Sequence record: LC739537.1
Length of the DNA stretch: 64,000 bases
Strand: one strand, 5' to 3'
From: Escherichia phage phiWec188
The notes beneath the pieces were generated by a model. It saw nothing but the letters and a program-made list of their open reading frames with translations, had not been told where the DNA came from and searched no databases. The translations under genes and the position numbers were made by a program. This document shows, piece after piece, positions 6,165 through 51,852 of the stretch; position 1 is the first letter of the stretch; each line of letters starts with the position of its first letter.

Positions 6165-6356
6165 ATGCAAGAGAATGAAGAGGTAGTTGTTAAAAAGTTC
6201 CCGACACGTACACAGGCAGTCAACTTTGCTTCTGATTTGCTTGTAGATGTGGAAGGAGTTCTCATTAGACATGAAGGGGATTCCTGGAATGTCTCTTATA
6301 ACGTAAACAGATCAATTATCTATTTAGGAGAAGAGAACTTCTCTCGTATAGATTGA
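6165..6356 (+). CDS. hypothetical protein
   Basis: 63 aa ORF; aaggagg RBS upstream. Confidence 0.45.
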   Translation: MQENEEVVVKKFPTRTQAVNFASDLLVDVEGVLIRHEGDSWNVSYNVNRSIIYLGEENFSRID

Positions 6357-6370
6357 TCGAAGGAGTAGTT

Positions 6371-6943
6371 ATGCGTTCTACTTACACAGGTAAGATTAAT
6401 TCTGGTATCATTTTAGCAGTAGCAGGAATCATCAGCAAAACTTTCAAAGTGGCAAACCTACCAGAGTGTGTAGATTTTGACCACGTATTCAATCCATTAA
6501 ATCCTTCTCGTTGTGTTGTTCGTAGCAACATTGAGAATCCAAACGAGAACTTGTTTTATGTAACATCGCCTTCACAAAGTATTCTAAACCAAGTGGAGGC
6601 TAAAATTATTACCGAAGGTAGTTATTTCTCATTGCTACCTTGTAAATCGGTGGCGATTGAAGATAGTATCACCTTCGCAAATAACTTGGTCTTGACCATG
6701 TTCATGGTTTCTGATAAAGACTGTGGAGAGGATATGGTTTTAGCTGTAAGGAATGTTTATGACACATTGGGTATTGCTTATAGCTGTAAGTTGTGCGATG
6801 ATTATAAATCTTGTTCAGACTTTTACATAAATGGTGTTCGGGTATGTCGTGTTGAATCCTACTGGGTGCAAGACACATACGTAACAGTAGCGAACGTGAT
6901 CAATGAACCTATGTTCAGCCACGCTTTAGCGTTAATCATTTGA
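6371..6943 (+). CDS. hypothetical protein
   Basis: ORF 6353..6943 in track; ATG 6371 chosen because of aaggag RBS. Confidence 0.5.
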   Translation: MRSTYTGKINSGIILAVAGIISKTFKVANLPECVDFDHVFNPLNPSRCVVRSNIENPNENLFYVTSPSQSILNQVEAKIITEGSYFSLLPCKSVAIEDSITFANNLVLTMFMVSDKDCGEDMVLAVRNVYDTLGIAYSCKLCDDYKSCSDFYINGVRVCRVESYWVQDTYVTVANVINEPMFSHALALII

Positions 6944-6953
6944 GGAGGAAGGG

Positions 6954-7283
6954 ATGGAAATTACTACAGAACAGGCTCTTATCGACGAAGGGCGTAAAAT
7001 CTTAGAGAAGCATTTGGGAGATATACATCAAACCCCTGGCTACTTAGGGTGGCGCATGGTTGAAGCTGTAGATTTCCTTCCTCGCACCAAACAAGACGTT
7101 GAAATGCGTTCTCTGTTTTTGCTTGTTAAGGTAGACGGAGATACGCCTTTCAAGCTGGCAGCTTCACACATTGAGAAGGTGGAGGAGAAAGCTTATTCAG
7201 AGTTTGCCGAACTCGTATTACAGGAGGATCTCGAAGGGAAGGTAAACATTTTTATTTTTCTGGATTTTGAGGAGGAGATATGA
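6954..7283 (+). CDS. hypothetical protein
   Basis: 109 aa ORF; gaggagg RBS upstream. Confidence 0.5.
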   Translation: MEITTEQALIDEGRKILEKHLGDIHQTPGYLGWRMVEAVDFLPRTKQDVEMRSLFLLVKVDGDTPFKLAASHIEKVEEKAYSEFAELVLQEDLEGKVNIFIFLDFEEEI

Positions 7284-10480: not shown

Positions 10481-11425
10481 ATGAAAGTATTAATCGGTAG
10501 TCGTGCGTTGGAAATGATTTGTCGTTCTCGTGGTGTAGAACTGTATCGTGCTTGCGTAGATCTGGATTACCTCTGCACTGAAGAAGAGTGGCAAGCAGAA
10601 GCCCAGAAATTCTCGAAAGATCGTTTCGTGGAAATTGTTGAACGTAAAGGTAACAAAGGGCATATCAAAATGATCGCGGGTGCTCATCTGGAATACGATA
10701 TTGCTCAACCAGGGGATTCTACAGAAGCATTGATCGAATATATTAAAGAGAATGCAGATCATCTGCCACATATTGGTTACGATGTGGTTGCACCTTTGGA
10801 TGTTTTGTATCTCCTGAAAATGAGTCACCGTTTTAAGAAGGACAGTCCTCACTTCCTGAAAACAATGAAGGATATCCACTTCATGCGCAACCTTGGAGCG
10901 AAGATCCCTGAAGAGTTGGAAGATACATACAAACTGCGTCAGAAGGAGTCCTATAATTACGGGCACCCTAATCTGAACGTGAAAAGTAAAGATTTCTTCA
11001 AGGGTGATGAAGTGCCTTATGTGTATGATCACGATACCATCCATGAAGCTGTTGCCGTGTTGGGTGATCCCGCTTATAAATCATACATGAAAGACGATAG
11101 CGAAGTGATGACCAGTAAAGAGAAGTTCTTTGCACAACCTAAACATATCCGTTTGCTGGGTGTTTACGAAGAAGCTTGTGTCCTGGCATTAGAGCGTTCA
11201 CAGATCCCGTTTGGGGAAGATGTAGATGGTCCAACTCCTAAACAAAGTTTTATGATGGCTTTATCCAAAGTTTGTACCTCGATCACCAGTGGATGGTTTC
11301 GTGAATATGCCTGGGAAAACTTCCAAGTTGTGGTAAAACTGTATGAGCAAATGGGCCAAGATGATTACGTGGCACGTTTTAAAGCAAATCTTCACATGGT
11401 GAAACCTTACGAAGGAGGTTATTGA
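10481..11425 (+). CDS. hypothetical protein
   Basis: ORF 10421..11425; ATG 10481 preceded by agaggagg; about 314 aa. Confidence 0.55.
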   Translation: MKVLIGSRALEMICRSRGVELYRACVDLDYLCTEEEWQAEAQKFSKDRFVEIVERKGNKGHIKMIAGAHLEYDIAQPGDSTEALIEYIKENADHLPHIGYDVVAPLDVLYLLKMSHRFKKDSPHFLKTMKDIHFMRNLGAKIPEELEDTYKLRQKESYNYGHPNLNVKSKDFFKGDEVPYVYDHDTIHEAVAVLGDPAYKSYMKDDSEVMTSKEKFFAQPKHIRLLGVYEEACVLALERSQIPFGEDVDGPTPKQSFMMALSKVCTSITSGWFREYAWENFQVVVKLYEQMGQDDYVARFKANLHMVKPYEGGY

Positions 11426-35557: not shown

Positions 35558-35814
35558 TTATCATTGGTATTCCCTATCAATTATTCCATATATACCTGTT
35601 ATTTTTGACACCCCTTTGGTCAAATATTAATCGGCAAAATATCTGGGGGGAGAGATTATTTCGATACCCTCTGTTCCTGCGATTTATCGGCAAGAATATC
35701 ATCGGCAAAGAGACAGAAAAGCCTTTGGTAGCAAGGATTTATGGCGAGTACGTCAGGACTGCTGAACGCGAATTTTCCGGCCCCTCCACTTCTGCGCGCC
35801 GGAATCTTCAAATA

Positions 35815-36020
35815 TCAATGAGAATAATTATCATTATCATTCGCATTCAATAACTTAGGCGATCTTTTCCCCTGCTATAAGGTTGGGCCTAACTTAAGCA
35901 CTACTTTTTAAACAATCCTTTATCAATCAACTACTTAACAACCTAAACATATGATTACTACGGTGTAAAGGTGCCGCCCATAACAGACTACCTATAAAAT
36001 AAATGAGAATGATTATTATT
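35815..36020. repeat. two copies of a TGAGAAT-N-ATTCTCA-type palindrome (Fur-box-like)
   Basis: atgagaataattatcattatcattcg near 35817 and aatgagaatgattattattc near 35998; same motif recurs six times at 48.85-49.07 kb. Confidence 0.45.
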
Positions 36021-36317
36021 CAGACAATTCTTACAACAAATCGACCAATAAATCAAGATTTTTCTGATTTTATTTACGTTTAAGAGAACGTGCTCAACAT
36101 ATCCGCCATAGGCGGCTATCTTTCCCCCGCAAACATTAAGCCTTTATCTTTCATCTTTCTGTATATCTGTACACTATGCAACCTGTCGCTATTCGCTCAT
36201 GTTGCTACGTGCTAATCCTTCACCATGCTAATGATGATCACACTGAACGATAGTGATAACTCATGTAATAATTACATTGATTATTATATTACGCTTAACT
36301 ATTCTTACATACAATGC

Positions 36318-36440
36318 TAATAATAAGCCAGCGTAATTAGTGTAAGCGTAATACGCTTGCAATAATTGCAAGCTACATAATCACAAGAAATAACTATCAC
36401 CGATAGTTATGATTGTGGGGGTGTAGTTGGCTTATTATTA
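36318..36440. repeat. large imperfect palindrome with a perfect 19-bp core
   Basis: gcttgcaatAattgcaagc (36355-36373) flanked by inverted 11-mers aataataagcc / ggcttattatt about 110 bp apart. Confidence 0.5.
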
Positions 36441-41463: not shown

Positions 41464-41649
41464 TTATTTGACTATGTGACGATCATTATATTCAGTGTAA
41501 AACTCGCAACCATCGTCACGACTATCAAGTTTAACAATGTAACCAGTTTGATAACGTTCAATAGATACCATTGCATAAAACTTACCATTCAGGATATTTC
41601 TAACCAGATCGCCTTTTACCAATTCTTTCGTTTTCTTGTAAGTAGTCAT
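41464..41649 (-). CDS. hypothetical protein
   Basis: ORF 41464..41700; ATG 41649 downstream of hairpin. Confidence 0.5.
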   Translation of the reverse strand: MTTYKKTKELVKGDLVRNILNGKFYAMVSIERYQTGYIVKLDSRDDGCEFYTEYNDRHIVK

Positions 41650-41669
41650 GATGTTTTCTCTTCTGTTAG

Positions 41670-41726
41670 GCGGGGCGCTTGTCGCCCCTATGTGATACAT
41701 CTTATCAGGTTGATTCAGCTTGTCAA
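41670..41726 (-). promoter_or_regulatory. promoter plus 5' hairpin cassette (stem variant ggggcg/cgcccc)
   Basis: TTGACA, spacer, TGATAAGAT, then ggggcgACAAGcgcccc hairpin. Confidence 0.5.
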
Positions 41727-41727
41727 A

Positions 41728-41907
41728 CTATTTGTTAGCCGGATTATATGCCAGGACCGCGCCACTTGCTTTCACGCTTTCCGCTTCATAGTTGCGCAGA
41801 TCGTTTTCTGTAAGATTGAGCGCGATCACTTCCTCGATCTCAATACCAGTGGCAAGGGCGATCTCTTTAATGATGTTTGATGATCTGATAACGTTTACTG
41901 TTTTCAT
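41728..41907 (-). CDS. hypothetical protein
   Basis: ORF 41728..41964; ATG 41907 chosen (MKTVNV...). Confidence 0.45.
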   Translation of the reverse strand: MKTVNVIRSSNIIKEIALATGIEIEEVIALNLTENDLRNYEAESVKASGAVLAYNPANK

Positions 41908-41917
41908 GGTGTGCACC

Positions 41918-42037
41918 TTATAAGATGATTGATAAGATAGTGATAACGAAAGCGATAACACCAACGGCGATCGTAGTCTTACGCCCTTCGGATACTGCCG
42001 GATTCTCTACCGTGTATTCTACTGTGTATTTGTTCAT
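41918..42037 (-). CDS. small membrane peptide (39 aa, not in ORF track)
   Basis: ATG 42037 preceded by gagagga; C-terminal TM segment IAVGVIAFVITILSII. Confidence 0.3.
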   Translation of the reverse strand: MNKYTVEYTVENPAVSEGRKTTIAVGVIAFVITILSIIL

Positions 42038-42136
42038 TGTGTTATCCTCTCGCTTGCTTTGGGAACTATTCCCGCCGCCCTATGAATTAAATATACACTA
42101 TCTCAAAATGATTGCAAACCTTTTTCTAAATTATTT

Positions 42137-42421
42137 TTATGCAGTAAATAAACCATCGTTTACAACGGCGGCGATGATCTCCCGTGCCATTGATTCAGGG
42201 AACGGGGCGCTATAGTCCTGGCTTGTCTCGTCGCTGTCTGTTACCCAATGATAAGCCAACGAGTAAAAGCCTTTACTCCCTGTTTTCAGTGAAACGATGA
42301 TCACTCGGTTAAGTCCATCGGTAAACGTTGCCGTTAATGTGCTATCATCTTGCGTCATGTTGGACAAGTAAGCGGCATCATTAACCAGGGAAAACAGTAG
42401 CACCGTGTTAGCTTTAACCAT
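42137..42421 (-). CDS. hypothetical protein
   Basis: ORF 42137..42451; ATG 42421 after hairpin. Confidence 0.5.
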   Translation of the reverse strand: MVKANTVLLFSLVNDAAYLSNMTQDDSTLTATFTDGLNRVIIVSLKTGSKGFYSLAYHWVTDSDETSQDYSAPFPESMAREIIAAVVNDGLFTA

Positions 42422-42440
42422 AGTTTGATCCTCAAACGAG

Positions 42441-42497
42441 CGCGGTACCATTGCCGCCCTACGTGATACATCTTATCAGGTCTGATTATGGTGTCAA
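42441..42497 (-). promoter_or_regulatory. promoter plus 5' hairpin cassette
   Basis: TTGACA, 16 bp, TGATAAGAT, gtatcacgtag, then ggcggcAATGgtaccgc hairpin. Confidence 0.55.
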
Positions 42498-42503
42498 CCA
42501 CTT

Positions 42504-42689
42504 TTAAAGATATTTTATACTGATAACATTTTCAGGTTTAACCTGGTTATGATAAGCATCAATGTAAATCAAACCATCATTAGATAAGCCCAGGATCACG
42601 CCTTGCGCAATAAATCCGTATTCGTCGCGGTAACGGGCTGCTACTTTGTTCGTTGCGTTGTAGGCGGTTTTAATCTCGTTTAAGGTCAT
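42504..42689 (-). CDS. hypothetical protein
   Basis: 61 aa ORF. Confidence 0.45.
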   Translation of the reverse strand: MTLNEIKTAYNATNKVAARYRDEYGFIAQGVILGLSNDGLIYIDAYHNQVKPENVISIKYL

Positions 42690-42713
42690 GTGCTGTTATC
42701 CTCTCGTTAGATA

Positions 42714-42745
42714 TAAGAAAGGGCGCTATTTGCGCCCTTGTTTTG
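42714..42745 (-). terminator. intrinsic terminator (minus strand)
   Basis: gggcgcAAATAgcgccc hairpin with flanking A/T runs; third copy of this terminator type. Confidence 0.5.
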
Positions 42746-42892
42746 TTAGTCTTCCAGGTCCAGCCATGCACGTTTATCGGTGCGGTCGCGCTTAGTCTTG
42801 TTGCGCTTGTCGCCCTTGCGGACCACTTCTTCATTCCACGCTGCGCGAGTTTTGGAAGATTGGATTTTTTCGGCGCGATTAGATGTATTCAT
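42746..42892 (-). CDS. small basic protein (48 aa, not in ORF track)
   Basis: ATG 42892 preceded by agagga and the cassette at 42914-42972; replaces shadow plus ORF 42743..42982. Confidence 0.4.
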   Translation of the reverse strand: MNTSNRAEKIQSSKTRAAWNEEVVRKGDKRNKTKRDRTDKRAWLDLED

Positions 42893-42913
42893 GATGTTTC
42901 CTCTTTTTGTTGT

Positions 42914-42972
42914 GAGCGGCACCATTGCCGCCCTACGTGTTTAAATTTACTTTATTGTTTGATGCCTGTCAA
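42914..42972 (-). promoter_or_regulatory. promoter plus 5' hairpin cassette
   Basis: TTGACA ... -10 ... ggcggcAATGgtgccgc. Confidence 0.5.
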
Positions 42973-42988
42973 CTACTTTTAAAACTTT

Positions 42989-43342
42989 TTATTCGTGGGA
43001 AAGTGCAAGGATCACTCCTGCAAGGTATAGCCAATAGTTTTCCCTTTCTTTCTGGATCTTGCTTTCGCTGCTACGCTCGCTAATGTATCCCCAGGATGTT
43101 AACAACCGATCTACTTCCCAATATTCGAAAGCGATATTGATATCTGACGGTAAACCTTGTAACCATGAGGCTATTGCTCTGATAACGTTATGATTGTAGT
43201 ATTCTTGGTTATAGGGATACCAGTACTCATTCTTAAAACGTCGCATCAATTCCGCGATCTTCTCTTTCTCTTCTGTGATGCTATACTCGCTATAATCAAT
43301 TGAGGCCAGAATATAAAGTTTAATTGCATTTTGTGCTTTCAT
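42989..43342 (-). CDS. hypothetical protein
   Basis: 117 aa ORF; cassette upstream at 43362-43420. Confidence 0.55.
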   Translation of the reverse strand: MKAQNAIKLYILASIDYSEYSITEEKEKIAELMRRFKNEYWYPYNQEYYNHNVIRAIASWLQGLPSDINIAFEYWEVDRLLTSWGYISERSSESKIQKERENYWLYLAGVILALSHE

Positions 43343-43361
43343 GGTGTCTCTCTTCTGTTGT

Positions 43362-43420
43362 GAGCGGCACCATTGCCGCCCTACGTGTTACATCTTACCG
43401 GATTTTTAAAACTTGTCAAT
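43362..43420 (-). promoter_or_regulatory. promoter plus 5' hairpin cassette
   Basis: TTGACA, spacer, TAAGAT, then canonical hairpin. Confidence 0.5.
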
Positions 43421-43641
43421 CATTTTTCTACTATCATTTGATATCCTGTTTCAATGTTAGTAAACACCGTGATCCCGTCCTGGCGTTCACTCATAAGGAA
43501 GCAAGGCGCTAACATCCTTCCTACTTCCTTGCACTCGTTATAAGCGGCGGTGATATCTCCTGCTGCTTTGTCTTCGGTGGTGAATGTATCGTTCACGTAA
43601 ACTTGACCAGCGACAACGGCGACAATAGCGAAAGTGATCAT
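43420..43641 (-). CDS. hypothetical protein
   Basis: 73 aa ORF. Confidence 0.45.
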   Translation of the reverse strand: MITFAIVAVVAGQVYVNDTFTTEDKAAGDITAAYNECKEVGRMLAPCFLMSERQDGITVFTNIETGYQMIVEK

Positions 43642-43721
43642 GATGTTTTCTCTCTTTGTGATAAGTGGTTTCTCTTCTCAATAGCGCCTATTGAGCGGGG
43701 CGCTATTACGAAGGGCTAACC

Positions 43722-43889
43722 TTATTTGTTACGGCTTAACGTGCCCAAGTTATCAGCATGACGCAGACCAGGGAAGATCCACGCGCCTGATGTATCTTTT
43801 ACAGGGGCTTTAAGCGTAGCGCCCAGGTTGGCGGCGTTAACTTTACGTGCAACGTTGCGAGCGGCTTCACGGGTAGTAAAAGTAATCAT
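43722..43889 (-). CDS. small hypothetical protein (55 aa, not in ORF track)
   Basis: ATG 43889 preceded by agaggaaaa; hairpin variant ggcggtgg..ccgccgcc upstream. Confidence 0.4.
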   Translation of the reverse strand: MITFTTREAARNVARKVNAANLGATLKAPVKDTSGAWIFPGLRHADNLGTLSRNK

Positions 43890-43978
43890 GATGTTTTCCT
43901 CTTCTCTTTGTTAGGCGGTGGACCATTCCGCCGCCTTGATGTAATACAGTTTACTTTATTTTATGGGGATTGCAAGCT

Positions 43979-44194
43979 TTAATTTAAGATTGTTAGTGTA
44001 AAATTGTAATCCCCTGCCTGATATACTACCTTGTTGCTAAAAGTTCCAACACGTTTCACATTGCAATATATACCCATAACACTTTTTACATCTTTGATGT
44101 TCTTAACGCCTGTAATGTCTTTATTGAAATAATCGTGATCGGAAAATAAAACTCGACTTGCATTTTTTAACAGTGTGCGGATATTAGCCATCAT
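43979..44194 (-). CDS. hypothetical protein
   Basis: ORF 43979..44224; ATG 44194 after hairpin. Confidence 0.5.
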   Translation of the reverse strand: MMANIRTLLKNASRVLFSDHDYFNKDITGVKNIKDVKSVMGIYCNVKRVGTFSNKVVYQAGDYNFTLTILN

Positions 44195-44213
44195 GATAAT
44201 CTCTCTTCTTGCT

Positions 44214-44270
44214 GGCGGCACCATTGCCGCCCTACGTAATACAGTTTACTCTTTTTCTTTCCCGTGTCAA
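44214..44270 (-). promoter_or_regulatory. promoter plus 5' hairpin cassette
   Basis: TTGACA ... ggcggcAATGgtgccgcc. Confidence 0.5.
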
Positions 44271-44279
44271 CAATCTTTT

Positions 44280-44507
44280 TCAGATTAATTCGTCCAGGCA
44301 TAACAGGCGATCAACGTTGAGATCGGTCAGGCTGATGGTTGGCACCTGATAAGATTCGATGTACTCAACGCTCGCATATTCCCCAAAATTAGCAATAGCC
44401 CACTTATTCAAGATCTCACATACATCATTAATCTTTTTATTTGTTACAACGGCTATAACCTGGGAAGTGCCAACGGTGCCGGATACGCGAACAATATTGA
44501 TAGCCAT
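44280..44507 (-). CDS. hypothetical protein
   Basis: 75 aa ORF. Confidence 0.5.
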   Translation of the reverse strand: MAINIVRVSGTVGTSQVIAVVTNKKINDVCEILNKWAIANFGEYASVEYIESYQVPTISLTDLNVDRLLCLDELI

Positions 44508-44594
44508 GATTTTTCTCTCTTCTGTTAGGCGGGGCGCTTGTCGCCCCTATGTGATACATCTTACACTAATTTAAAACGTTGTCAACTGTTTTTA

Positions 44595-44834
44595 TTACAT
44601 TCCGACCATCGCGGCGCGGATCGCAGTAGTGCTATATTTGAAACCGTCTGGAGTCTTATCTTGTCCAGTCTCTTGTAAAAATAGCATCATATGACGGGCC
44701 GCATCATTGCGATTAGTGCTATCGTTAATAAAGTCCAGGGCCAACCGATACAATGATTCATCGTTGTTAATCCAAAGGCTTACATTCCAATGATTTTTAT
44801 TTTTGTGACCTAAGAACATTTTTGATTTAGCCAT
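44595..44834 (-). CDS. hypothetical protein
   Basis: 79 aa ORF. Confidence 0.5.
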   Translation of the reverse strand: MAKSKMFLGHKNKNHWNVSLWINNDESLYRLALDFINDSTNRNDAARHMMLFLQETGQDKTPDGFKYSTTAIRAAMVGM

Positions 44835-44923
44835 GATGTTAATCTCTCTTTGAGTGGGGCGGGAACTATTCCCGCGCCCTATGTAATACAGTTTACTCTT
44901 TTTATTCGTGCTGTCAACGTCTT

Positions 44924-45289
44924 TTATAAATCTTTTTTACGCTTAACATCGCTTGCATGACTGTATACAGCGATCCCATTGTCACGGCAAAAACGGGAAA
45001 GATAGCTGCCGCGTGAAAATTCTTTGCCTTCAAGGTTGATAACCTTGCTAAATTCTTCCAGGGCGACGGTATCAAAATGATCACCATAGCCATATTGAAA
45101 CGGAACGTTAACCACTTCAATCAATTTACCGCAGATCTCGACGTCCACACTTAAAGAAAAATATGTATTACCGTAGGACTGTTGAAACCAGCGACGGGCG
45201 CTAATGTGCACTGCTTCAATGCTGGATAGTTCGATTTTAGCAGTGTTAGCCAGGGTAGCATAAGCGGACACATTGATATTTTTAGCCAT
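44924..45289 (-). CDS. hypothetical protein
   Basis: 121 aa ORF. Confidence 0.55.
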   Translation of the reverse strand: MAKNINVSAYATLANTAKIELSSIEAVHISARRWFQQSYGNTYFSLSVDVEICGKLIEVVNVPFQYGYGDHFDTVALEEFSKVINLEGKEFSRGSYLSRFCRDNGIAVYSHASDVKRKKDL

Positions 45290-45386
45290 GTTCTTACTCT
45301 CTCTTTTTGGTTAGTGGGAAGTATTCCCGATAAAAGTTATTATGCTTGTACTATCGCCTATTGTCAATAGCACAAGACTAAAACTT

Positions 45387-45566
45387 TTAACGATAATCAT
45401 TATAGGCTTGATTGACCTGACGAATGTAACATTCGAAAGCAAGATCAATATATTCGTATTCATGCACATAATCCCCATAGGTTACTACATACATTCCTAA
45501 CGTTTCCTTATATGTCAGAAGAATGGAATCTAAGCCCACGATTTCAGTTTTTGCAATGATAGCCAT
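45387..45566 (-). CDS. small hypothetical protein (59 aa, not in ORF track)
   Basis: ATG 45566 located after cassette hairpin 45588-45605. Confidence 0.4.
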   Translation of the reverse strand: MAIIAKTEIVGLDSILLTYKETLGMYVVTYGDYVHEYEYIDLAFECYIRQVNQAYNDYR

Positions 45567-45587
45567 GATGATAACCTTTTTATTGTT

Positions 45588-45644
45588 GGCGGCACCATTG
45601 CCGCCCTACGTGATAAACTATAACAGAATTTTAAACAGTGTCAA
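45588..45644 (-). promoter_or_regulatory. promoter plus 5' hairpin cassette
   Basis: TTGACA, spacer, TAGTTTATCAC -10 region, then ggcggcAATGgtgccgcc. Confidence 0.5.
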
Positions 45645-45655
45645 ACGTTTTTTTC

Positions 45656-45901
45656 TTAGTTTGCGAAATATGGTGCGGCGGCTGATGCCGTTAAGCTCCA
45701 AGTGATTTGGCTATCGATCAAGTATTCTTCATTCTTGATCCGCACGGTATCAATCGAGAAGTTACTAAAAGGCTTGCTTTTAATTTTACGAACAACCGTT
45801 ACACGACGGTTATTTTTCATCTCTTTTAACTGAATCCAGGCGTAACCTTTTTCATTAACAAAGATTTCATTGTGATTGGTGATAGATGATAAGTGTTTCA
45901 T
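45656..45901 (-). CDS. hypothetical protein
   Basis: 81 aa ORF. Confidence 0.5.
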   Translation of the reverse strand: MKHLSSITNHNEIFVNEKGYAWIQLKEMKNNRRVTVVRKIKSKPFSNFSIDTVRIKNEEYLIDSQITWSLTASAAAPYFAN

Positions 45902-45991
45902 GATATTCTCTCTTCTGTTTTGAGCGGTGGACCATTCCGCCGCCCTATGTGATACAGCTTACTACTTTTTGAAACGTTGTCAAGGATATTT

Positions 45992-46273
45992 TTAACTGTA
46001 TGATCCGCACCGCTCGCAATAGTGATCATCGTCGTCATCTGCCGCCTGGCTGATAAAGTGATCAACCTTTGATTTCAGGCTTTTATAATTGTTCTCAACT
46101 TCCTGTAGTCGTCGCTGGTAATATTCCAGGGCTTGCACATATGCCGCTTGTTCGGTTTTCGCTTGCATCGATAAATTCATGCCGCGCGTTTCATCGTATA
46201 GCCAATAACCATCGTTGCATTCACTGATCGATAGGGTAGGGCTTAGTTTTTCGTGACTAATTACCTTGCTCAT
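45992..46273 (-). CDS. hypothetical protein (C-terminal CxxC)
   Basis: 93 aa ORF. Confidence 0.5.
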   Translation of the reverse strand: MSKVISHEKLSPTLSISECNDGYWLYDETRGMNLSMQAKTEQAAYVQALEYYQRRLQEVENNYKSLKSKVDHFISQAADDDDDHYCERCGSYS

Positions 46274-48230: not shown

Positions 48231-48337
48231 ACTTTTTCAATCTTTTTCATTTCTTTTTTGCTTGCTATATATAAAGGAAAGGGCTATTATCTTTCTACCG
48301 CGCCAACCAGGGCGCACAACAAAGAAAGGGCGACACC

Positions 48338-48604
48338 ATGACAACTACTACATTACACCTTATGCACTCTTTAGGCTGGCAAGGCGGCACGGTCCACCAG
48401 GTAGCAAGCGCAACGGGCTTAAAGGTTGAAACCGTTCTCACCTTGGGCGATCATAAAGTGGAAGATATAGACCATTTTGATCCGTTCGCTGATGGTTATT
48501 TATGGGCTTGCAGTGGCGGCGGTGAAAACAAGATACCGCCAGGGGCGCGGGGTGATATGTATTTTTGGTTAGGCGTTCTTGCCTGGCAAGAAGACAAAAA
48601 ATAG
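48338..48604 (+). CDS. hypothetical protein
   Basis: 88 aa ORF on plus strand; agaaaggg RBS. Confidence 0.5.
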   Translation: MTTTTLHLMHSLGWQGGTVHQVASATGLKVETVLTLGDHKVEDIDHFDPFADGYLWACSGGGENKIPPGARGDMYFWLGVLAWQEDKK

Positions 48605-48606
48605 TC

Positions 48607-48635
48607 TTGACAAGCCCAGGGATCGGGCTTATACT
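48607..48635 (+). promoter_or_regulatory. near-consensus sigma70 promoter (TTGACA-N17-TATACT) with no ORF downstream
   Basis: Perfect -35, 17-bp spacer, TATACT -10, right after the stop at 48604. Confidence 0.5.
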
Positions 48636-48649
48636 GTTTTACATACAGA

Positions 48650-48740
48650 AGAGGAAGCGCCACCCCCCACGGCGTAAAGGCGGGGCTAACATACCAGGGG
48701 CACCGGTTGGAAGGTCGATCGCCGGGAGGCTGGGCGCTAT
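48650..48740 (+). ncRNA. candidate structured small RNA (GC-rich, ends gcgcc/ggcgc can pair)
   Basis: About 90 nt of locally high GC with several self-complementary segments directly downstream of the promoter; no RBS/ATG. Confidence 0.25.
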
Positions 48741-48847
48741 ATATTTGTAAAGAAATGTAAAGATAAAATAATCGCTTGCTTTCCTGGCTGGATCTGTTAT
48801 TCTTATTACATGGCGAGGGGACACGGGAGCGCGAGATAATCACCGGA

Positions 48848-49070
48848 CCTGCCCGTCATTCTCTAAATGAGAATGATTATCATTTACCTTATTGAATAAA
48901 AATCAATCTTATTTGGATAGTTGAATGAGAATCAATCTCATTCGCAAGGTGAGAATAAATCTCATTTACGCTATTGAATGCGAATCATTCGTATTTACCA
49001 TGTTAAATGAGAATCATTATCATTCTCATTCGTATTTCGATTTTAAGTGAGAATAATTCTCATTTCGGTA
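48848..49070. repeat. six tandem copies of the TGAGAAT-N-ATTCTCA palindrome (Fur-box-like)
   Basis: aatgagaatgattatcattta, aatgagaatcaatctcattcg, ggtgagaataaatctcattta, aatgcgaatcattcgtattta, aatgagaatcattatcattctcattcg, agtgagaataattctcatttcgg. Confidence 0.55.
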
Positions 49071-49080
49071 ATTTTCACGC

Positions 49081-49330
49081 AAACTTTAGAATTTGCTTTT
49101 CAACTTTCACTTTTGTAAAAGCAAAAAAACTTTAAATACCTGGTGCGCGCGACTTTTTTAAAAATTTTTCTCGGTTTTTTGTTTTGCAATCTGGTCCACC
49201 CATTTGAGATAATGTGTGTAAACTTTAGAATTTGGTTTTGGATTCTCGTTTTTGTAAACTCATAAAAAGTTTAAATAATTGTAGGGATTTTTGAGATAGT
49301 TTGCTTGTAAGATTTGAGATAATCTTTCCT
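49081..49330. repeat. direct repeats (about 40 bp, two copies) plus three tttgagata motifs
   Basis: aaactttagaatttgcttttcaactttcacttttgtaaaagc (49081) versus aaactttagaatttggttttggattctcgtttttgtaaactc (49224); tttgagata at about 49203, 49291, 49313. Confidence 0.5.
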
Positions 49331-49517
49331 GAAGATGCTACGCAGCCTACAACCTACCTGAATGCTCGTCTAACGAGGTTAACTCTAAAAGATGAGTGTT
49401 GGTGTAGCTAAAGAGAAAAAGGCTCTCTACGGAGGTTGTAGGAGCCTTTTTCTGTGGCACAAAGTTGACGTATTCTTTTTAAAAACGAATTTTTTCAAAA
49501 TATCACGAATATCGCCT

Positions 49518-50045
49518 TTATGGTATTTTGGCTGGGAACAGGATTTTAATCAGATTGTTGTGGTATTGTCCTAAAAGATTCTGCCCTTTCCAGTTGGCAG
49601 GATTAAGCACCCCTGGTTCATACATACCCATTCCAATTCCGTAAACCTTATCGTAAGGGCTGGCCTCAACGAATGTTTTGAATTGATACAGGCGCAAGTC
49701 AGAGTAAAGATCAGGGTTCTGTGTATACTTCAAGCATAAGCCTCGCATTACGATACGCTCTCGGTGCTCTTCCCACACGTCATTATTAAAACCAGACACC
49801 GCTCGACCCATACGTTTGTAGTACGCCTGTCCCTTCTCGTCGTCACGCTTCATTGAGTGATAAAGGATAGCTGCTGCGATTACCTGATCCTTGAACAGCA
49901 AAGCCTTACGCCACATCATGTATTGCTCTACACAACAGAAAGTGTCACTGTACCCTGGTTCCGTCTCTGTAAATGGCGCAATGTACCAATTGCTAAACAC
50001 ATCTTTATGTGAAAAGAAGAATACATATTCATCAGTTATTCGCAT
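49518..50045 (-). CDS. NADAR-domain protein (YbiA/DUF1768-like)
   Basis: 175 aa; FSNW, VEQYMMWRKA, NLLGQY segments parallel the conserved NADAR blocks of E. coli YbiA. Confidence 0.6.
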   Translation of the reverse strand: MRITDEYVFFFSHKDVFSNWYIAPFTETEPGYSDTFCCVEQYMMWRKALLFKDQVIAAAILYHSMKRDDEKGQAYYKRMGRAVSGFNNDVWEEHRERIVMRGLCLKYTQNPDLYSDLRLYQFKTFVEASPYDKVYGIGMGMYEPGVLNPANWKGQNLLGQYHNNLIKILFPAKIP

Positions 50046-50644: not shown

Positions 50645-51784
50645 TCAGAACACACTGCTCAGTGTTGCAGATCGTGTAGTGGTTGGTTCCAGAACCACGC
50701 GGAACGTATCTCCAGGTTTATCGCTCACTACTACAATCTTACCACCTTCAATCAGGTCACACTTCAAACCTTCGGCGGTAGCTTTCAGGTCGATGCGTGG
50801 ATCACCATCATCATCCAGGATGACGTAGCTGCTATCTTCGAGAGGCTCCAGTTCTTCGTCCTTCACTGCTTCCAGGTAGATGTTCAGTTCACATGCACCA
50901 GACAAGAACTTGGTAGGAGTGAACTCATGCCAGTTGTTGACCCAGTTAGGCTTGATAGCTTTACCGTTGACAACAATAGAGCTAATCGTCCAGCGTGCAT
51001 CGTTACCCAGAGAGATACCCATCATCTCCAGACAGGTCTTGAACGTCATTTTCGGATAGAAGTTTAACTCTTCTACGATCCCTTGAATAACATCGAAAGA
51101 CAGTTCAGTGCTAACATCCCACAAACGTTGGAAGCTTTCAACATGTTTGCGATTCTTCAGATTCTTGTCCAAGTAGTCCAGCATAGTTTCAATAGACAGC
51201 TTGTCGTAGTTGAAGCTATAGAAGATACGGCTCGGACGGTTGACGAAGTATTCCGAGATGTATCCACTGTTCTTTGTCAGCATGAACAGTTTGTTACCGC
51301 TACCTGTGCCATCCAGCAGAGTCAGCAGTGCTTCCTGATCTTCCTTCTTGGAATACACTTTGTCGAACTCATCGAACAGTACTACTGCGCGTTCAGAGAT
51401 CTTACTCATGAACTCCAGGAAGTTGGCATCAGAATATGGCTGCGTTACCAGAATAGTTGGGATTCCCAGGTCTTCCGCTTCCAACAGAGTGTTACTGATC
51501 AGTTTTGCCAGCATTGTCTTGCCACTGCCTTTTGTACCCGACAACAGGACACCTGTGTTCTTACCTTCTTTACTACGACGAGCGAAGGTACGGATAACGT
51601 GGGCTGCACGTTCTTTGGTTTCCCCGTACAGGCGATCAGGAATCGTGAACTTATCAGCACGACTAAGAGAGTAGTTACCATGTGGATCACAATTGACAGT
51701 CCAAACGCCAGCGGGGAGTTTATCAACCTCTACACCGAAGTCTTTATTAACAATAGCAACATCCCCGTACACTGTGTATTTCAT
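50645..51784 (-). CDS. AAA+ family ATPase
   Basis: 379 aa; Walker A GTKGSGKT, Walker B VVLFDEFDK; agaggagag RBS. Confidence 0.75.
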   Translation of the reverse strand: MKYTVYGDVAIVNKDFGVEVDKLPAGVWTVNCDPHGNYSLSRADKFTIPDRLYGETKERAAHVIRTFARRSKEGKNTGVLLSGTKGSGKTMLAKLISNTLLEAEDLGIPTILVTQPYSDANFLEFMSKISERAVVLFDEFDKVYSKKEDQEALLTLLDGTGSGNKLFMLTKNSGYISEYFVNRPSRIFYSFNYDKLSIETMLDYLDKNLKNRKHVESFQRLWDVSTELSFDVIQGIVEELNFYPKMTFKTCLEMMGISLGNDARWTISSIVVNGKAIKPNWVNNWHEFTPTKFLSGACELNIYLEAVKDEELEPLEDSSYVILDDDGDPRIDLKATAEGLKCDLIEGGKIVVVSDKPGDTFRVVLEPTTTRSATLSSVF

Positions 51785-51852
51785 TTAATCTCTCCTCTTC
51801 TGTTGGAATAGACGTATTATCTCTTGTCTAATACGTCTTGTCAATACTTATT

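Follow-up and report, generated by a model that had tools for sequence, protein, structure and literature searches.

A candidate structured non-coding RNA with its own predicted promoter, conserved among rV5-like phages

To our knowledge, very few structured RNAs have been described in virulent phages. The putL and putR RNAs of phage HK022 are structured, shorter than 100 nt and located downstream of the early sigma-70 promoters PL and PR; a put-type antiterminator has two stem-loops and acts in cis on the transcribing polymerase, leading to read-through of terminators ahead of the early genes. Lytic phages also make abundant structured RNAs: the species 1 and 2 RNAs of T4, which are encoded within a tRNA cluster and share its processing, and the pRNA of phi29, which is expressed from a strong early promoter. 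Phage RNA decoys, such as the pseudo-ToxI of phiTE and RNA anti-CRISPRs, bind a host defence protein by mimicry and copy the host repeat. Transcription is also a part of some replication origins. The T7 primary origin comprises two promoters and an A+T-rich stretch, T4 oriF and oriG involve R-loops, and ColE1 RNA II needs its fold; the folding of RNA II aside, neither a conserved pseudoknot nor a hairpin with co-variation is known to us from these origin transcripts. Sewage and gut samples commonly contain rV5-like phages (Vequintavirinae and Stephanstirmvirinae), whose early region is mostly unannotated. In the rV5 genome paper, the region considered here is drawn as an unexplained "non-coding" box (PMC3606486).

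Here we analysed a stretch of 64,000 nucleotides from Escherichia phage phiWec188 (LC739537.1, referred to below as the window) and describe RNA1, which is very probably a functional, transcribed and structured RNA element of a new family. A literature search that included literal sequence strings returned no description of it. Like the put RNAs, RNA1 is phage-encoded, structured and non-coding, and is situated 3' of a predicted early sigma-70 promoter with no dedicated terminator, a likeness of position only. Unlike them, it has no + strand gene downstream, which argues against a put-type element. As with the T4 species 1 and 2 RNAs and phi29 pRNA, it would be a structured RNA of a lytic phage that is neither tRNA nor mRNA (with an early promoter, as for pRNA), but it has no sequence or Rfam match, and the window is without any tRNA. 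A packaging RNA is not expected, because rV5-like phages presumably use a conventional terminase. Phage phiTE, the host of the pseudo-ToxI decoy, itself carries RNA1; in contrast to the decoys, RNA1 has no internal tandem repeat and no match in the plasmids and 5,426 E. coli genomes searched.

Layout of the locus and its promoters

The features of the locus are as follows, in window coordinates.

48338..48604, + strand: upstream 88-aa gene of a phage-only protein family
48607..48635, + strand: promoter P1, with TTGACA (48607-48612), a 17-bp spacer and TATACT (48630-48635); 11 of 12 matches
48612..48630, + strand: G+C-rich hairpin AAGCCC/GGGCTT in the P1 spacer, then ATACTGTTTT; a terminator-like site
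48642..48747, + strand: RNA1, candidate structured non-coding RNA, from the predicted start to the conserved TTTGTAAAG motif (nominal 3' end)
48744..48763, + strand: conserved, A+T-rich 3'-flank motif of RNA1, TTTGTAAAGAAATGTAAAGA, just 5' of P2
48776..48803, + strand: promoter P2, with TTGCTT, a 16-bp spacer and TGt-TATTCT (extended -10), read from the sequence and aligned relatives
48808..48861, + strand: RNA2, another G+C-rich segment that is conserved, ACATGGCGAGGGG...GAGATAATCACCGGACCTGCCCGTCATTC, closed by a modest stem
48855..49064, no strand assigned: about seven Fur-box-like palindromes, AATGAGAATnATTcTCATT, immediately 3' of RNA2 (repeat family D1)
49081..49277, + strand: two 58-nt A+T-rich direct repeats (repeat family D3)
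49414..49453, no strand assigned: perfect 12-bp inverted repeat, AGAAAAAGGCTC/GAGCCTTTTTCT, with A and T runs on its flanks (inverted repeat I16)

Together these features make up a non-coding locus of about 900 bp in the order P1-RNA1, P2-RNA2, palindrome array, A+T-rich repeats and terminator. Over positions 48300-49300 the window matches Escherichia phage phiWec190 (LC739539.1; Stephanstirmvirinae, Phapecoctavirus) without a single difference, in reverse orientation to that record, which carries no annotation over 48605-49517 (a 910-bp stretch in window coordinates). The + strand from 48605 to 49453 contains only mechanical open reading frames (ORFs) of up to 42 aa, inside the repeats, and no gene downstream of RNA1. 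The inverted repeat at 49414-49453 is a probable bidirectional terminator, judging from its sequence, which would close the non-coding locus before the NADAR-domain gene at 49518-50045 (- strand). At the other end, the 88-aa gene at 48338-48604 is the sole + strand gene within a block of - strand genes that extends over roughly 14-54 kb.

P1 lies where the initial annotation had placed a TTGACA-N17-TATACT promoter, right after the stop of 48338-48604: it begins 3 nt past the TAG, and transcription is predicted to start at about 48641-48643. The range given there (48607-48840) takes in P1 with RNA1, and then P2 and the 5' half of RNA2. Promoter sites matching at least 11 of 12 positions number 18 in the window, compared with 2.3 in first-order random sequence, and they track gene orientation. 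Owing to this excess and agreement, we regard sites of this quality as real promoters. P1 is the only one of them on the + strand within the - strand block at 14-54 kb. Its equivalent is kept in all 30 distinct upstream regions (score 9-12 of 12, spacer 17-18 bp), in each case 15-22 nt upstream of the first CGCC.

Downstream of the hairpin in the P1 spacer come the -10 box and a stretch rich in T, and the hairpin is likely to be an intrinsic terminator that serves the upstream gene and is nested within P1. A hairpin of -5 kcal/mol or lower is present at this position in about 24 of the 30 upstream regions (range -5 to -16 kcal/mol). These hairpins are built from differing sequences, frequently with a GNRA loop, and compensatory changes maintain their pairing; in the other six or so regions, mostly Seunavirus-like, the hairpin is weak.

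Directly 3' of RNA1 is a conserved TTTGTAAAGA motif, and at the 48744-48763 motif TTGTAAAGA was present in every relative examined. This A+T-rich flank may be an UP-element-like sequence, a protein-binding site or a processing region. P2 is weak in the window phage and absent from the listing of the consensus promoter scan; relatives have better versions, with TTGCAA, TTGATC or TTGACC in combination with TATATT or TATTAT. In an 18-sequence alignment, the closing stem of RNA2 alternates between AUGGCG/CGUCAU and AUAGCG/CGCUAU, with some double changes, and the consensus energy is only -2.5 kcal/mol. One IMG/VR contig (L011, 1786-1944, - strand) has about 60 nt extra in the RNA2 region compared with its relatives; the additional bases lie 3' of the P2 -10 box and 5' of the conserved 3' end ACACCGCCCCTGTCTGTCATTC, which stays. 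Further downstream, the promoter scan found a promoter-like TTGAGA-16-TAGAAT at 49204, within the second 58-nt repeat.

At up to three mismatches, the palindrome array comprises seven sites (48866-49064), compared with 0.07 expected in the whole window. Two of these match 16 of 19 positions of GATAATGATAATCATTATC, the 19-bp E. coli Fur-box consensus, where none would be expected. Judging by these sites, a virulent phage may here sense or titrate the host iron regulator Fur. Two further Fur-like boxes are located at 35817-35838 and 36002-36020, in a second long non-coding region (35558-36400); in all, three sites reach 16-17 of 19 positions of the consensus, against none expected by chance.

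Distribution, non-coding status and natural alleles of RNA1

A blastn search with the segment matched 231 phage records, or 240 when seeded with the most divergent copy, and RNA1 is nearly always present as one copy per genome. The carriers include Phapecoctavirus, Justusliebigvirus, Certrevirus (CR3, phiTE), Seunavirus (GAP31), Mydovirus, Henunavirus (Erwinia phages), Serratia phages and uncultured IMG/VR contigs, such that the P1-RNA1 unit spans the subfamilies Stephanstirmvirinae and Vequintavirinae. Many of the matched records are candidate antibacterial isolates against E. coli, Klebsiella, Salmonella, Cronobacter and plant pathogens. With the covariance model R1, the window yields a single copy (97.5 bits), and relatives score 44-121 bits. 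Mean column identity across RNA1 is 80% (30 distinct sequences), and in distant relatives DNA similarity within 1.5 kb on either side is limited to approximately 48600-48940. P1-RNA1, P2-RNA2, the site array, two long A+T-rich repeats and the terminator follow one another in constant order in every relative. Four uncultured phages (L055-L058) keep the RNA1-P2-RNA2 layout, with TCACnCCCGAAACTAT direct repeats replacing the palindromes (L055 3012-3072), and L055 has a pair of 78-nt A+T-rich repeats analogous to the 58-nt pair of the window.

Scans with a 19-base core pattern gave four matches in bacterial genomes, which is about the number expected by chance. One of these is a 4-kb contig (L025, JAEZZU010000352.1) in a MAG labelled "Proteobacteria bacterium", which carries an ESCO13-like copy of the whole locus and is most likely phage DNA mis-binned into the MAG. 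A metagenome scan, for which the loop length of the pattern was mis-specified, returned 20 matches, of which one (L047) is real; the other 19 arose by chance in protein-coding or other non-phage DNA, and roughly a dozen of these fall within a single conserved bacterial gene.

The initial annotation had described a GC-rich, non-coding segment, and the G+C content at 48650-48740 is indeed 0.67, compared with 0.42 for the whole window. It had also stated that the segment holds no ORF of meaningful length. None of the ORFs is conserved, although mechanical ORFs of 61 aa (+ strand) and of 115 and 61 aa (- strand) do overlap RNA1. The RNA1 core is 62-71 nt long, with lengths in all three residues modulo 3. 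Indels of 1 and 2 nt separate the cores of closely related phages, and any given frame is free of stops in at most 16 of 32 homologues. Because core length shifts by 1-2 nt even among closely related phages, a coding function is excluded for either strand. Hypothetical-protein CDSs placed over RNA1 in several GenBank records (for example PsgM04F, WPEC phages, GEC_vB_MG) are therefore considered spurious, given the frameshifting indels. Most records have no annotation over the RNA1 region, and in others spurious CDSs occupy it.

Known RNA families were likewise not recovered. ARAGORN predicted no tRNA at RNA1 with default settings or with thresholds relaxed to 80%, and no tRNA gene in the window or in six related loci. 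With the gathering thresholds of Rfam 15 there was no match in the 64-kb window, and at E<=10 only chance matches of microRNA type appeared in the palindrome array and none in RNA1. These results agree with the earlier view that the segment is not a standard tRNA, and they reject a tRNA, a tmRNA and the tRNA-like remnant that the initial annotation had offered as an alternative; the Rfam covariance search it had proposed as a check thus yielded no family for RNA1. The tRNA-Ile and tRNA-Met annotated at 10891-11044 of OY978796.1 (Klebsiella phage K45PH128C2), in its RNA2/array region, were not reproduced by ARAGORN and look misplaced. A search for direct repeats within 48642-48747 found none, which rejects a type III antitoxin or ToxI-like RNA with tandem repeats of ~36 nt. 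Comparisons made by eye with an SRP-RNA-like motif, an anti-Shine-Dalgarno sequence, HDV-ribozyme topology and CRISPR repeat mimicry fail on sequence, on segment order or in a divergent allele of RNA1; for example, the likeness of GGGG-CUAAC to a type I-F/I-E repeat handle is gone in that allele.

This divergent form, allele B, retains CGCC, ACGGCG, the proposed pseudoknot partners, a bulged hairpin and AUCGCCGG (all described below) and lacks AAGGT, with the remainder replaced. It is the only copy detected in phage A7_1 (Vequintavirinae) and FKP3 (Justusliebigvirus), based on examined stretches of ~1.3-3 kb. In some phages both forms are present. In Pectobacterium phage P7_Pc (L065), a 3'-disrupted allele A (602-710) is followed 85 nt later by allele B (795-896), and the intervening 85 nt contain no endonuclease gene. 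In contig L019, allele A is split after GGATCGCTGGTAC by the gene for a 197-aa HNH endonuclease (6420-7013, - strand; PHROG 953, phrog_953, E 7.6e-79), and a complete allele B (6283-6385) with its own P1-type promoter is located after the HNH gene. Given this insertion and the divergent second allele, the RNA1 gene appears to be a homing target. An intact RNA1 copy is present in each interrupted or two-allele case, which speaks for selection to retain it. In addition, since allele B replaces a third of the sequence and keeps the fold, selection seems to act on RNA shape. What emerges is a conserved candidate RNA gene that lends itself to testing, for which coordinates, a structural model and two naturally occurring alleles are in hand.

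Comparative structure of RNA1

Thermodynamic folding, which the initial annotation had suggested as a check, did not help: the single-sequence fold of the segment was no better than that of shuffled sequences (z -1.03; 38 of 200 shuffles), and neither strand gave a significant fold. The case for structure in RNA1 is consequently a comparative one, and involves the following elements.

48658..48674, + strand: candidate 4-bp hairpin H1, with CGCC (48658-48661), a C-run loop (48662-48669) and CGGCG (48670-48674), from alignment A2
48679..48685, + strand: GGCGGGG, of which GGGG (48682-48685) is the proposed partner of the C-run, from co-variation
48690..48709, + strand: hairpin H3, CATACCAG GGGCA CCGGTTG, in which a bulged U separates an outer 2-bp helix from an inner helix with a variable loop
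48711..48725, + strand: AAGGT, two variable bases and ATCGCCGG, the most conserved 3' block, invariant in allele A

H3 is the best-supported helix, and was missed among the complementarities listed in the initial annotation. Both RNAalifold and explicit pair counting recover it, seven of its eight pairs change on both sides, and all 22 distinct variants fold on their own into the same bulged hairpin. For example, columns 50-72 form an AU pair in 18-20 sequences and a GC pair in 12, and none of the sequences breaks the pairing; the H3 of the window phage contains one A.C mismatch. Over all proposed pairs, 97% of cells are paired and eight pairs change on both sides. None of 500 shuffles reached the observed values, and slid controls were 21-50% paired. 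In an all-against-all covariation scan, the only clean signals were H3 and the pair formed by the C-run loop and the G-run.

In H1, CGCC and ACGGCG are invariant (alignment A2), and the C-run between them varies from four to six C among relatives, as expected of a loop. The G-run situated 13 nt downstream co-varies with it: most phages have CCCC/GGGG, whereas Henunavirus, an uncultured group and allele B have CCAA/UUGG instead. Columns 27-42 are CG in 25 sequences and AU in six, and columns 25-44 are CG in 31 and UG in one. This pattern, which reflects only one or two evolutionary events, suggests that loop and G-run pair to form a sterically reasonable H-type pseudoknot of 27 nt. Among the complementarities proposed previously, cccc/gggg is thus borne out by co-variation; ccgg/ccgg finds no support, and gcgcc...ggcgc pairs only in a phAPEC8-like subgroup, to which the closing stem followed by AUAUAUUUG is confined.

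Across 30 distinct copies, the invariant blocks of RNA1 are CGCC, ACGGCG, AAGGU and AUCGCCGG. Within the 3' block, CGCCG (48720-48724) is complementary to CGGCG (48670-48674) and offers an alternative to H1. RNAalifold picks this long-range CGGCG/CGCCG helix, and a C-to-U change in phage A7_1 and in copy 1 of L019 preserves it as a G.U pair. Because all three segments are invariant, comparison does not separate the two helices. Constrained folds place both states close in energy in several lineages, and both may form. An inner helix, GC..CU/AGGU, also proposed by RNAalifold, was discarded on account of its loss in allele B. The consensus fold has an energy of -14.3 kcal/mol on the + strand, compared with -10.3 kcal/mol on the - strand. 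Invariant blocks that are unpaired in this model indicate a conserved partner.

On these grounds, the central proposal of the initial annotation, a consensus promoter driving a non-coding structured RNA, is upheld by the promoter kept in 30 of 30 upstream regions, the frameshifting indels and the compensatory changes in stems.

Candidate roles of RNA1 and its locus

The reading we favour, which we hold about as probable as all other readings taken together, is that RNA1 is a new, free-standing early RNA, transcribed from P1 by host sigma-70 RNA polymerase and recognised by a conserved partner. Transcription would take place at the start of infection, and the longer P1 transcript would be processed in the A+U-rich spacer to release RNA1. 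The product would consist of a purine-rich 5' tail, a CGCC/GGCG hairpin whose loop pairs with the downstream G-run (the putative H-type pseudoknot of ~27 nt), the bulged hairpin H3, and the invariant 3' block AUCGCCGG as an alternative partner of the same GGCG. Acting free of the locus, it could be read, through its shape and invariant unpaired bases, by a partner conserved across Enterobacterales or among these phages, probably a protein or small ligand rather than an mRNA. A free-standing RNA is favoured because of the invariant unpaired bases, the selection for shape across two alleles and the presence of its own, mobile promoter.

Besides the non-significant single-sequence fold and the one or two events behind the pseudoknot, two features run counter to this reading. 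The + strand from 48640 to 48855 has no intrinsic-terminator-like site, so the 3' end given for RNA1 is nominal; typical enterobacterial trans-acting sRNAs do have a terminator, and those dependent on Hfq combine their own promoter, which RNA1 has in P1, with a Rho-independent terminator and U tail and with a conserved unpaired seed that is complementary to target mRNAs. Moreover, RNA1 always precedes P2, RNA2, the repeat array and the A+T-rich region, and given this constant linkage a cis role in a larger DNA element fits as well as action in trans. Complementarity between RNA1 and potential targets in the window was at chance level (only matches of 9-12 nt), which gave no convincing target for the regulatory sRNA envisaged in the initial annotation, and a repeatedly matched target, ACAGAAGAG, proved to be the common leader and ribosome-binding motif of early genes.

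A more specific form of the free-standing reading, which we put forward tentatively, is that RNA1 founds a new class of phage RNAs, which are pseudoknotted, made early and act by neutralising or recruiting a host factor that is conserved. Its importance would be such that homing endonucleases target its gene and spread a resistant allele, and its locus would also capture Fur through the array of Fur boxes. The host factor could be a protein of defence or regulation, or else a signalling nucleotide. As a decoy or recruiter of this kind, RNA1 would represent a new mechanism of host takeover.

The main rival, no less tentative, is that RNA1 is a replication-origin transcript and the 900-bp locus an origin, or one of several. 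P1 and P2 would then be tandem host promoters whose G-rich transcripts enter the A+T-rich repeats and open the DNA or prime synthesis, and the fold of RNA1 might be needed for hybrid formation or processing, by analogy with RNA II. Tandem promoters leading into A+T-rich repeats and a G-rich transcript recall the T7 primary origin, T4 oriF and oriG, and ColE1 RNA II, and a wholly non-coding locus with a conserved layout is in keeping with origin transcripts. The architecture is constant in every relative, no terminator separates RNA1 from the A+T-rich region, the non-template strand of RNA1 contains more G than C (35 versus 26), and the repeated sites at 48866-49064 adjoin the A+T-rich repeats at 49081-49277, as in iteron origins. 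The four uncultured phages in which TCACnCCCGAAACTAT takes the place of the array motif also fit, as pairs of iteron and initiator behave likewise. Further in favour of an origin, rV5 is reported to have a primase/helicase related to those of podoviruses, and a search for its origin by skew analysis was negative (PMC3606486). However, priming or opening alone leaves the invariant unpaired blocks and the hairpin maintained in 22 variants unexplained, and allele B replaces a third of the sequence yet retains the fold. GC skew at the site shows nothing beyond gene orientation, and no DnaA-box-like sequence was noticed by eye in the locus. If correct, this explanation would pinpoint the replication origin of the rV5-like group; whether RNA1 is an origin transcript or a decoy or recruiter, the terminator-bearing promoter and the Fur-box array would be regulatory parts suited to reuse.

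It is improbable that RNA1 is a cis-acting leader that switches conformation. Here, CGCC at 48658, GGCG at 48671 and CGCC at 48720 would form mutually exclusive helices, one of them stabilised by the pseudoknot, and the choice would set the progress of polymerase into P2, RNA2 and the array in response to a ligand, protein or temperature. All three segments are invariant while their neighbours vary, the two states are similar in energy in the constrained folds of several lineages, and the G.U substitution retains the long-range helix. The putative pseudoknot also resembles small H-type pseudoknot aptamers and viral frameshift pseudoknots, with stems of 4 bp and 3-4 bp, two short loops (1 and 1-2 nt) and an A-rich third loop of 6-7 nt, which is the size of small riboswitch aptamers. 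Unlike riboswitch and frameshift pseudoknots, however, RNA1 has no Rfam riboswitch match, no downstream ORF and no slippery site. No same-strand gene is available for regulation before the terminator at 49453, and neither state sequesters a terminator or a ribosome-binding site.

That the conserved feature works as DNA, for instance as a protein-binding site or a single-stranded hairpin in replication or packaging with the promoter incidental, is very unlikely: compensatory stem changes would suit a DNA hairpin on either strand equally, and the A.C mismatch in the H3 of the window becomes G.T on the - strand, but all 30 upstream regions hold the promoter in register, the mobile allele B brings its own promoter copy, + strand G.U pairs (25 sequences at columns 39-79, one at columns 30-89) would turn into A.C on the complementary strand, and the + strand consensus folds better.

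Separately, early genes on the - strand (41600-46000 and 51740-51810; five sites seen) share parts of a leader module. This has a promoter such as TTGACA-17-TAAGAT (41666, 44525) with a start near CACATAGGGGCG, followed at four of the sites by a 5' hairpin, then by (C)TAACAGAAGAG(A)GA and the ATG. The 5' end of RNA1 resembles the ribosome-binding half of this leader, and the 5' end of RNA2 resembles its start/hairpin half.
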